DNA of 64,000 nucleotides from Phallusia mammillata (lineage: Eukaryota). The stretch is from NCBI GenBank assembly GCA_965637545.1, contig OZ281500.1, positions 6,882,001-6,946,000 on the forward strand, written 5' to 3'. Positions within the stretch are counted from its first letter, which is position 1; each line of letters begins with the position of its first letter. The translations under genes and the position numbers were made by a program. This document shows, one piece after another, positions 21,589 to 27,500 of this stretch. The notes under the pieces are model-generated. The model was not told the DNA's origin. It did not search any database and saw only the letters and a list, made by a program, of their open reading frames with translations.

Positions 21589-24500
21589 TTAAATAAACTT
21601 AAAGCACTTTTGCTTGTCGTGGGGAAGGCGCGTTTTGAACAGAATCGAGTCGGCGCGAATCTGTGTGAAGACAAGCGGCATGTAGCCGAAAATCTTAACA
21701 AACTTGTTGATGCATTTGTGTCGTTCGTCGAAGTGTTCTTGCGACTGCGAAAGAGCCACTGGGCAACCCGGGCAGCGGAACGTCCAACGTGACGTCACCT
21801 GCACAAAATGCGCGTCACATCACAACATGTTAAGTGTCAAAGGAAGATAGCACCATTAGCGGGAGGGACTATAACAGAACCTTTTTTGTTTGAGCCGTCC
21901 TATAGGCACGTTGATTTTTTTATTACCTTCCTCACGATTATACAACGTAAGCGATTTTTGCGCACTAGTCACGAACCGCCAAATATTCCAAGAAAAGTAA
22001 AGACGATATGTGCATCTTTACAGCATGCAAATAACTCCATTCAAAAGGGTTTATAAATGTTGATAATGTACCTTAACGGGAGGCTGCCTTGTTATATGAG
22101 ACACGAGGAAATTGATGGCGATATCTTCACAGTTCATATATTCATCGACAATCTCACGAATAGCTGACGGCATCCAGTGTGTATATAGGTACATGTAGTA
22201 CTGCATAAAATACATGTTATCGTCACTTCAGCAAACGGTAGTTCTTGGTACTGTATAGTGACAATACAAAATGAAATTTCCATCCACACAACACAACGGC
22301 TAGACTACTGCGGTCTAGCAAATATCACCTGCTACTAAAATGCTTTAAAAACTGGTCGGAAACGCATGTTTGGTACAAAAAAACACATGTTTTTATAATT
22401 ACAGGACAGGTAGATGTGGGCATACAGCTCCTACTAAAGTAAGTCCCTGCCACATAACGCTTATAGTAATGGTGTAACAGCAGCAGTTTACCATCTCTCC
22501 ACCAATTATACCCTTACCTTTGTCGCGCTTTATAAAGTCCCAACGTTGCGCAGCTAGCTATTTCCGGCTTGGTGAATATATTAACGCAATTATGCTGATA
22601 CGATTTTTTTTACCCGGCGAAATAAACTAAACTCATATTGAGATTCAACGTACGCAACTGCGGGCGTTGGTAAAGTAAAGCCTAAAGGAATAGGCAAAAT
22701 GGCGACAAGGTTGTGATTTGTAGGTGTGAGGAATCAAAATGGAAATATTCGCACCCACCTTGTGAAAGAAAGCAGCTCCGGTAAGCACCATTGACAACTC
22801 ACAAGTGTGGTTTGAATTGTAATTCCATTTGCCACCTGCAGCATCCCATGCGTGAAACCGACCAGGGAAACCGACGATACGATCTCTATGTTGACGCCAA
22901 ACCCTAAATGTTCAATACAGTGTATATTAAAATGGCACAAAACTTTTGTTTTATTTTGGGTCTAAACCGTTGAAAATCAAAAGTAAAATGGCATGTGAAG
23001 CTGTATGGGCAAAATGTTTAATCAGATGGAAAGTCTCAACACATTTTCACTGCCAAAAAATTGTATGGTAAAAAATAAAAATAAATGTGGTAAAAAATAA
23101 ATTCGTTAATGTTGATCGGTATTCTAGTTTCGTAATTATTCTAGAATAGTAATCTATTAGAAAATCGCCTATTTCCACAACTAGGTTACCTTTTTCAGTG
23201 TGCTAAATAAAATGTTTCACGCCGCAGATTTACCAACACAGCCACAAAATACACAACATGCTTCATATATTCGTAACAAAAACAACCGCAACAACACACC
23301 TGAATCCAAACAACATCTCATCGTGACGTAGGTGAGCGTCATCATCGATCGAGAGTACGCACTCGGTCTGGATTTCGTCCCAAGGCACGAAGCGATTGTT
23401 GAGACTATTTCGGTTCGGATGAACAACTACAACTTCCACGTCGATCTTCGGCCACCGGAGGGCGTCGTTTGGCGGTTGTGGAGAGTTCCACACAACTACC
23501 ACCTTTCGAATTTTGCCAAAAGTTGTTACAGTTGCTACATGAACCAAGCGTATTGTGATCGTACGTTTTTACAACCTGTTTGGTATGTTGTTTATAGATT
23601 ATGGAATTATATAAGGTTAGTTAGGTAACGCATTAAAGTTTTGCAATATGTACTAAACCTATATAGCCAGGGTTGTCATCGACTTGAAACCAAAAATAAG
23701 GACAACCGAAAAACTATTTGTTTATGCGAAACGAAAGAAACGTTTCTGAACAAATCTTTGCTTTTTTTCGAGCCATAACATAATATTTACAGTATTTTGG
23801 CCGGAAACAATCTGTTACAGCAACTCGTTGTTCGTAGAAAATACTAAGTACATCTCACATCGGGCCGGGTCTAGGTTCACTTCTACTTGTAGCAGGGATT
23901 TGACTATAGTAATTGTTGAAAATAAGACAAAATAAGGACTACAGTCAAAAATAAGGACATTTCTTAGAAATAAGGACAATGAACTTTTCTAAGACACACC
24001 CCTTCAAAATAAGAACAAATCTTAGAAATAAGGACAGTATGGCAACCCTGTATATAGCAATGCTTGACGAGCTGCAGACAATACACACTTGGTCGACCTA
24101 TAAGGTTATGTCAGTGCAGCTGGTGACGAGAGATCTGAGCTAATGACCTTATAGGTCGAAACAGTGTGCACTGTCTGTTGCTTATCAAGTATTGGCTCGA
24201 CGCTTTTATACCAATGCTTCTTTCATAAAAAACGTGCCCCGGCCACCATTAAAAATCAGGCAAATTGCAAAACTGTAAGTCAAAGTGTAATGGCGGACTG
24301 TCTATTTACTGGTGGATACCAGTAAGGGCAACTCGTGGTCCCCAGAAAGCACCTCGTACCCCCTTACGACCCTGGTTAACAAACACCGACCCATACATTT
24401 ACCTTAAAGCGAATATATTGCTTGTAATAATACTATATTGCTTGATATCATATCCAAAACCCCATCAAAGCACGCCCACAAAAATAAACATTTTACGCGC

Positions 24501-27500
24501 TAATCCTAAACCGCAACTTTTTCACCTTATTCAGATGTGGAAGACCAATAAGCCGTTCGATTGCTTGCATTAATACGTCATCGCGTTCGTACGTCAGCAT
24601 GACAATTGTAAATTGTTCTCTAGGTGAATTTCCGCCCAGTGACGACTGATAAACCTTGCCTGTTCCCCCCGTTCCTTCACCGATGGGCCGAAAACCGTTT
24701 GTGGAACCTGTCAGTCAAACAAGACGAATAATGTTATAGGCGCATTTAATTTGAGAAGCCTTTCAGCATTAATATGAATCTGTCTGTACAAGTAAAATAT
24801 TTACATCCAAAACCTTTTTACGTATTTACAAAGCAGCAGTTGAATCGCTCAAAAACTTTAAACGTTATTTACCGTTAGATTGTGTCCGATTAAACTTACA
24901 TACCTTTTCAGAAATTCTTGTCAGGTTTTCTTTTAACAATAAATCTTAACTTAAAAATTTCTCAAAAAATTTCCTTAAACAAATCAACTTTACTGTTGGG
25001 GAACTCAACAAAAAAAGGCTGTACCTATTGATTCAAAGAACCAACCTCAAAAGGTTCGGGTCGAAACCGAATCTAAAATCTCCTTTCTAAATGTTGTTTT
25101 TAACTGAACCTTGTGTTGTTGATGCAATGTAAACTCGTTTATGACGCTCTAAAATCACTTTTACAATGCGTAAGCCTAAATTTGTAATATTTTGCAGACC
25201 GTGGGTCGTTTCTTTAAATGTAACAATAAGGTAATTTATGATATGTCCGATTGGTGATATTAAATTTTTGGGCATTAATTTCATAAAATCAAAAAGTTCG
25301 GTTTCGGTCGAGTTTTCAAAAAAGTTCGGGCCGAAACCGAAATATTAGAAAAACGGCATATTCGGCATACCGAAACTTCGGTACATCACTAGTTTTAATC
25401 AAACAACAACTATACAATGCCAAATATCACCCTACCCATGAATTGAGCATCAGTAGGTAGAATCCGATCAGCAGGCAGGTAAGGATAAAGATTGAATGGA
25501 CCAGGTACGCTGTTCCACGTATCGCGGGAATCGATCGTTGCCATGGTGAAATTGCGAATAAACTTCGGCGAATCGATGCGAGGTTCGGGCGGAGGAATCC
25601 CAAACTCGGATTGCGCATCACCTGGCGACACCTCGTGGTTTTCAATCTTGAAGCTCTCGTGCTCGATGACGTCACTGCAAGTGGAATAGTTTTATGTTTT
25701 GGGTTATCTTTATGTTTGACGCAATGATATAAGATAAGCGTTCCCAAATTTTTTAAACAAAGGCCCGATTCAAGTTTAAAGAGCTCTTCTGGCATATGTA
25801 ATTTTATGCATTCAGTGTTATTTACCCTGATGAAGACGACCTGTATAGGACGTCGAAACGTCGGAATAAAATTACATTTGCCAGAAGAGCTCTTTAAAAT
25901 TGATACTATGAGCAGTAGCTTATATAAAGAGCCAGATTGCTAAATTTTGATAGCTGTAGGGGTCAGGTATCATTGCAAGATTTTTGACAAATACGATCAG
26001 TGGTGCAGTGGTTCGAGTCAGGATTTTGGGCATTTTTGGTTTTGTGTAAGTTCAGCAAGGCATGTTATCAGAAATATATATGGGTTACAACAGTGGTTCT
26101 CAAACTTTTAAGGCATGCGACGCATTAATGAACAACAATTTCCGTCCGTAGCACACTTCACAGTGAAAAAAAAAAAATTGTTCAAAGAATGTTAATTTTC
26201 AACTTCATTGTGGTGGGTAGGGATAATTTTTATTACCAATAACAAAAACATGATGTTAAACAACATCATTTATTGATCAAGTCATTAAACACCAGATAAT
26301 GTTTGCACTTTAAATTAGAAAATATTTCGCGGCACACAGTTTGAGAATCACTGGGTTACAAGGAGATCTTGGTGGGCAATAGTTTGAAAGGTTCCATTTG
26401 AAGACTTAAATGTCTCAAAATTATTTTTATTTAGATTTATAAAATGTTTAAATGCTTAAAAATCACCAAAAGTGTACCTTGGTTCGTCCAGCACGGGTAA
26501 GGGTGGTATCTGAAGTCTGGACCTAACAACTGCCAAGATCGAATCGACGACAGCATAGGGTGATGAAAAGTAGGTGTCGTATATGAAGCGAGCTTGTCTG
26601 CGCATAGACAGTATTTCAGCGTGCGGGGTGTTGGAAAGAAGAAAGCTGAGTTCGGTAATTCGAGCCTGAAAAAAATACATATAGCGAAATTTGTGGCAAT
26701 ACTAACGTCAAATTAGTACAACACAGAACTATAACGTTTACGCAAAAATGGAGTATTTGGTGTTATTATAACAGAGCCAAATCAAACCTGTGGTATAATT
26801 ATGGCTGCTTTTTCCCAAGCAACAAACTCGTCAAATGGAAGCACTGCATGCGTTCCCAAGACAACGGGGACAGCCCCGGAGCGTATTGCTTCAGTGAGTC
26901 TGATCACAAAGATTGAAGTCGTGGTCACGACCGATGGTTGCTCGGGTGCCGAAATCAGTGTGAAAGTTGACTGCGCAAGGACGAGGCTGCGTGAAGCAAA
27001 GTTTCCACATAAGGCCCACTCGGAACTGTAGATAAAATATTTGGTTAGCAATAGGGATGTGCCAAAACTGCAAATGTTCTGTTTGGTCGAGCACGCTCGG
27101 TACATTATGACGTCCCAAAAAATCTCCTTTCTGCGTTTTAGCTCTACAAGGTCTCTTACGTCACCGGCGGTGTTTTATTAAGCTGTACATGCCCATAAAA
27201 TACGCGTTTTTCCTTCATCTAGTACATTTGAAAAATCATTCGTTTTTGTTCATAGACACCCATTAGAACACTAGTTACGTATGTTAGCAGCGCATGAATA
27301 TGCAAACATAACGCTTGGGCCAGTTGGTGAAACTGCTCGGCCGAGCACAGAGCATAAAAAACAGCGATGCTCAGTACCGAGTACTCGGGTTCTGGCTCGG
27401 GTCGGCCCATCCCTAGTTAGCAATATCACCAGTGGTACGTAAGTATCTTTCCGCTATGCTTAATTCAAGTCAGAACAGGCCTAGCTCAGTGTTTAGGTGT

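Follow-up and report, generated by a model that had tools for sequence, protein, structure and literature searches.

A hammerhead within an inverted repeat in an EXTL3-like intron of Phallusia mammillata belongs to a truncated, head-to-head Penelope-like element insertion

How does an intact hammerhead come to lie inside an inverted repeat in an intron, and does it cut anything there? The locus sits in a 64,000-nucleotide stretch of the Phallusia mammillata genome, referred to here as the window, and a reading of its letters alone (the original prediction) had taken the repeat for a young insertion with a ribozyme at its centre. The analysis points instead to a 157-bp, 5′-truncated, head-to-head insertion of an EN+ Penelope-like element (PLE) in an intron of an EXTL3-like gene, likely the result of target-primed reverse transcription that began twice on a single template, and carrying a hammerhead that is probably inert here; the probability of this reading is put at about 0.9. 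The features are collected in Table 1, in which family positions, as throughout, are numbered from the hammerhead cut. Statements on published systems refer to the available portions of the cited papers.

Table 1. Features of the insertion and its surroundings (window coordinates)
Feature	Position	Strand	Basis
PLE insertion, 157 bp	25770-25926		Alignment to family copies and flanking duplication
Left target-site duplication (TSD) copy, decayed, ~14 bp	25757-25770	+	Flank scoring; last base common to arm
Inverted tail-less arm, family +41 to +4	25770-25807	-	Arm scan; sibling arm starts
Direct arm, pLTR 3′ end from ~-54 to +70, with hammerhead and tail	25808-25926	+	Alignment to L009/L013/L061
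Minimal type I hammerhead	25818-25870	+	Core scan and min-HHR features of PMC4209133 (available text)
ATG within CUGAUGA	25830-25832	+	First ATG of RT-EN frame in parent L061
One-sided tail, +42 to +70	25904-25926	+	29 nt in family, 6 nt deleted in window copy
Right TSD copy	25924-25938	+	Flank scoring
Host intron, EXTL3-like gene	25675-26477	-	Spliced contig and domain matches

Scans for arms and cores recovered the predicted 38-bp inverted repeat with two mismatches and, with it, an intact minimal hammerhead core. The arms at 25770-25807 and 25866-25903 are 38 nt each, are 58 nt apart, and are complementary at 36 of 38 positions (95%); the hairpin fold has a z of -11 and was equalled by none of 200 shuffles. 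Helix I of the hammerhead is formed by UUAUU-UA-CC and GG-AAUAA (paired by eye), and the CUGAUGA core at 25827-25833 is followed by an unpaired A. Helix II (25835-25854) consists of GACG/CGUC plus CCU/AGG and leads into a GAAAC-GUC segment, in which C17 is position 25862 and the cut is predicted directly after it, while stem III is ACGU only. The conserved core, the G10.1-C11.1 pair in helix II, the extra nucleotide at 9/10.1, and the palindromic stem III are the features of a min-HHR. On scanning both strands, this is the single core in the 64 kb with a helix II of at least 4 bp, one chance-like match having 2 bp. Rfam at its gathering score gave no hammerhead match, and no hit of any kind, in the whole window; at E values up to 10, all matches in the interval 23900-26100 were to generic hairpins (miRNA-type) and scored far under threshold.

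The host assignment of the original prediction is borne out. The minus-strand gene has Pfam matches to GT47 and GT64, and the frame of the exon at 25434-25691 matches EXTL3 in the PDB (E 1e-12). One contig (record 25 of run X6, the RNA nature of which is a guess) joins 26478 to 25674, and the insertion is therefore intronic and antisense to its host. A 170-aa stop-to-stop frame on the minus strand crosses the insertion; it is unsupported, as the spliced contig skips it. Short contigs of the PLE family are also present in run X6 (again, RNA by guess only) and are not assignable to the locus at 25770-25926.

Other repeats lie nearby. At 24058-24210, in another intron of the EXTL3-like gene, there is a second and older head-to-head insertion (arms of 52 nt, 79%) from a different hammerhead-bearing family, for which 78 matches were found among 40 of 870 candidates scored. 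Its siblings carry the order CUGAUGA-GACC-UUAUA-GGUC-GAAAC; their helix I is 5 bp long, their tails are for the most part one-sided, and no ORF of at least 150 aa was found in 15 loci of that family. In the young copies seen (L261-L274), the triplet at the expected cut is GUG rather than NUH; with G17, a hammerhead should cleave inefficiently. Some copies of this family repeat at ~280 nt, like non-autonomous units. Within the same intron as the PLE, 26091-26353 is a repeat bounded by terminal inverted repeats of 16 nt (CAGTG ends), with a very high DNA-contig depth and the look of a MITE, and in the neighbouring intron a short repeated motif at 25049-25071 and 25289-25349, with a 19-nt inverted repeat, is probably another small transposon.

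Related copies of the hammerhead, which the original prediction had anticipated, are abundant: the exact 38-nt core occurs 256 times genome-wide and an exact 22-nt motif just downstream, in the tail, 197 times, with no occurrence of either reversed control. The direct arm aligns with the natural copies L009, L013, and L061 over 125 columns, with 3-4 substitutions and one gap of 6 nt. Longer copies run upstream into RT frames, and L061 is a near-full-length parent with the order pLTR-ORF-pLTR and an inverted tail-less arm of its own. Its frame opens with the ATG that lies within CUGAUGA and runs for ~816 codons, interrupted by one in-frame stop; hammerheads lie at both ends of the ORF, 2570 nt apart. 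The frame contains DKG (as SADKG) and GVVY..CAEC..YIG, that is, CxxC inside GIY-YIG, followed by downstream H residues; DKG, the CCHH arrangement with two cysteines between GIY and YIG, and the linker Zn-finger are used here as defined in the available text of PMC8557442. The CX2-5CxxC Zn-finger is absent from the RT-EN linker of L061, which has a single cysteine, as in the Penelope/Poseidon clade. Pfam matches to RVT_1 (E 5e-5) and GIY-YIG (E 0.005) are weak, both being below the Pfam cut-offs; Atlas gave 0.96-0.97 to animal RT clusters, and a PDB search with the RT-EN piece gave no match under E 0.1. These motifs identify the parent as an EN+ PLE with a single predicted ORF comprising RT plus a GIY-YIG domain at the C-terminus, and by the same motifs the family is of Penelope/Poseidon type. 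Another locus, L062 (partly N), has hammerheads 2558 nt apart; this is a local duplication of a truncated copy and not a full-length element. At L228-L240 (C3, ~3.05-5.04 Mb), one head-to-head PLE insertion is found over a dozen times between unchanged flanks and is therefore carried within a larger repeated unit.

The family also redraws the limits of the insertion. The element had been thought to end at 25903, where the repeat ends; the right arm, however, continues for 23 nt, to 25926. Nor is the hammerhead the centre of a unit, as the 3′ end of the element is present twice, the second time without its tail, as the left arm. The AATAAA described as directly at the predicted cut begins 2 nt after it, at 25865, and belongs both to helix I and to codons of the ORF; the siblings end ~70 nt past the cut, at a TSD and without poly(A). 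For the window copy, the TSD is inferred from the flanks: it carries 3 changes, and its score was reached by 1 of 300 random flanks.

The geometry of the siblings was read from a tail-anchored sample in which 88 of 100 tail matches listed (197 in total), after removal of 11 duplicates, gave 77 unique insertions; the other 12 were already represented by earlier or larger loci. Tailed arms end at +65 to +72, mostly at +70 or +71. Of the 77, 39 have an inverted arm, and its start is equally fixed, at +38 to +46 in 35 of 39; the remaining four start at +36, +34, +23, and +13, and none starts near +70. Exact TSDs of 7-17 bp flank 48 of the 77 insertions. Arm lengths range from ~25 to >1,500 nt. Among 65 scorable head-to-head pairs (64 scored by script plus the window copy, the tail deletion of which escaped the script), all 65 have exactly one tail, with no pair having two tails and no pair having none; 28 of the 65 come from loci that were not selected by tail, although two of these look like duplicates. 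The two arms of a pair also tend to share alleles: they agree in 34 of 42 pairs at one polymorphic site (shuffle mean 12.9, maximum 24) and in 46 of 59 at a second (shuffle mean 19.6, maximum 33), disagreeing in 8 and 13 pairs, respectively, and in several pairs private changes are common to both arms. Solo copies occur with and without a tail. A search for a hidden 8-nt remnant of an inverted arm in solo copies gave only 5 of 34 (background 4.6%), and no inverted tail was found upstream of tail-less solo copies in the five of five checked.

One tail per pair, together with allele sharing beyond that of the shuffles, favours two primings on one template. In such a scheme—read from genomic end-products only—the GIY-YIG endonuclease would nick both strands of the target with a stagger of ~14 nt. 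At the window locus, one nick would prime synthesis at +70, with the cDNA ending at about -54, and the other would prime synthesis at +41, with the cDNA ending at +4, after which the two cDNAs would be joined head-to-head. The 38-bp inverted repeat would then be the overlap of both cDNAs, and the hammerhead a passenger from the pLTR. Support for parts of this scheme comes from the Poseidon element PAc, which in vitro cuts and extends both strands and starts reverse transcription at two sites flanking its tail (PMC11167929, available text). The PAc start sites, however, show no strand difference (PMC11167929), and the strict one-tail rule is thus not predicted by the PAc data alone. We somewhat favour an ordered version of the process, in which one RNP with one uncut template would use both nicked strands, always with +70 on one strand and +41 on the other. 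If so, the inverted pLTR and the one-sided tail would be accounted for together, and the integrating RNA would be one that the hammerhead had not cut. Against double priming counts the absence of an inverted arm from about half of the insertions (38/77), and later gene conversion between arms could produce or inflate the agreement of their alleles.

The inverted arm might instead come from fold-back self-priming, by the cDNA or by an antisense RNA, rather than from a second priming at the target. Such an origin has been proposed for PLE palindromes of A. vaga (PMC3846280, available text); it would explain the identity of alleles between arms, and in the window copy the short arm does lie wholly inside the long one. 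Among the inverted siblings, however, the upstream limit of the tail-less arm lies beyond that of the tailed arm in 27 of 39, a result that fold-back copying of the tailed arm could hardly give; the joints are imperfect as hairpins, often with 1-34 extra bases, and the inverted arm has a constant outer end, at +41, directly adjoining the TSD. Fold-back is for these reasons unlikely. Far less credit still is left to the idea that the whole hairpin is the mobile unit, as a self-contained MITE or retrozyme with its own hammerhead, which the census largely refutes. Several siblings are indeed similar hairpins of 130-150 bp, but these were picked for resembling the query, and no two have the same inner joint. 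Across the family, arm lengths (~25 to >1,500 nt), TSDs (7-17 bp), and sizes are variable, and the ends are asymmetric (+70 as against +41), where a MITE should have symmetric terminal inverted repeats, a fixed TSD, and a uniform size. A retrozyme should consist of tandem hammerhead monomers, whereas the window holds one core in 64 kb in a head-to-head layout.

The short arm of the window copy ends at +4, close to the predicted cut, and this end could be taken for the trace of a template that the hammerhead had cut, a genomic fossil of ribozyme activity. Joints near the cut were seen in the first matches, which were biased towards the query, and of the arms at risk in the tail-anchored sample, 15 of 82 stop at 0 to +9, as against 4 of 67 at -10 to -1. 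Nevertheless, an arm that gets as far as +4 usually continues past the cut (67 of 73), and exact-pattern searches followed by classification of the truncations show no peak there. At 0, 7 of 18 loci were flagged and 5 were true by eye (19 of 19 examined); at +1, 30 of 55 were examined, and 2 of the 28 unique loci among them were truncated there; at +2, 4 of 18 were flagged and none was clear by eye (30 of 74 examined). The matched CpG control at -2 gave 6 flagged and 3 true by eye among 29 (30 of 33 examined). Arm ends thus do not pile up at the cut, which implies that templates were mostly uncut, and a ribozyme-cut template behind the short arm is very improbable.

Whether the hammerhead works at the locus today is a separate matter. 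The original prediction had classed it as a PLE-type minimal hammerhead that needs to dimerise, and the literature supports this: in the available text of PMC4209133, min-HHRs show no cleavage as monomers and weak cleavage as dimers. By secondary-structure energies only, the monomer folds into an alternative helix from which forcing the hammerhead costs 5.8-10.7 kcal/mol, and the left arm adds ~2 kcal/mol against a full helix I. The host pre-mRNA carries the antisense strand, without the core, and no same-strand hammerhead partner lies in the 64-kb window; for these two reasons the hammerhead is probably inert at this locus. There is, to be sure, an intact core; dimers formed in trans with other RNAs of the family are possible in principle, and the PAc protein can assist cleavage (PMC11167929, available text). 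The intact core is explained, however, by recent origin, 256 cores being identical, and it is highly doubtful that the hammerhead cuts an antisense transcript or affects EXTL3 expression. Nothing indicates cleavage at the window locus, and self-cleavage as a dimer or with protein is a prediction.

The description of the insertion as young holds for the family, with its many identical copies, and not for the window copy, which is of median age: its 2 arm mismatches within +12 to +41 equal the median, with lower counts in 23 of 65 pairs. Contigs from runs X1, X2, X3, and X5 contain its left junction; these runs represent three studies, one of which may have supplied the window. In X4, the interval 25715-25792 is missing, but X5, from the same sample, spans it. 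No empty allele was seen in the contigs of X1-X5, although contigs show presence and not absence.

The locus itself carries little weight, being one of hundreds of dead stubs, and it serves as a warning that hammerhead-in-hairpin matches in animal introns are usually PLE debris. The family census places a modest constraint on how inverted, tailed PLE insertions arise—an origin called undefined in PMC8557442 (available text)—through its single tail per pair, its same-allele arms, and its lack of any trace of ribozyme-cut templates. A literature search for twin priming in PLEs, with supplements and most subscription journals outside its scope, gave only an unrelated review on human transposable elements.

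The layout itself is published: the available text of PMC3846280 and PMC8557442 describes an inverted 5′-truncated pLTR, a one-sided tail of 30-40 bp, a TSD, and an ORF start inside the pLTR. In particular, EN+ insertions of Pen2a_Av (PMC3846280; legend to Fig. 2 of PMC8557442) have the same head-to-head arm, tail at one end, TSD, and pLTR with the first ORF codons. The tail measures 29 nt in the Phallusia mammillata family and 31 in Pen2a, and in contrast to Pen2a_Av, both arms of the window copy are too short to keep RT sequence, the whole insert being 157 bp. Solitary and opposite-strand min-HHRs derived from truncated PLEs are likewise described by Cervera and de la Pena (2014; PMC4209133, available text); the window copy differs in being enclosed by a second arm, and its cleavage is predicted only.

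The closest functional parallel is with PAc from Anolis carolinensis (Frangieh et al. 2024; PMC11167929, available text). As in PAc, the ORF begins inside the hammerhead, the tail lies between two fixed 3′ ends, and the template appears to be uncut by the hammerhead. The tail lies closer to the start codon in the window family than in PAc, no significant fold resembling the PAc tail stem-loop was found in that family (z +1.2 and +0.3), and genomic pairs obey a strict one-tail rule, whereas PAc uses the same start sites on both strands in vitro. Non-LTR retrozymes (bioRxiv 10.64898/2026.07.22.740005, available text) are likewise non-coding and PLE-related and carry a type I hammerhead. They are built, however, of head-to-tail tandem units with at least two hammerheads, whereas the window copy is a lone stub, arranged head-to-head, and is identical to the terminus of a coding PLE.
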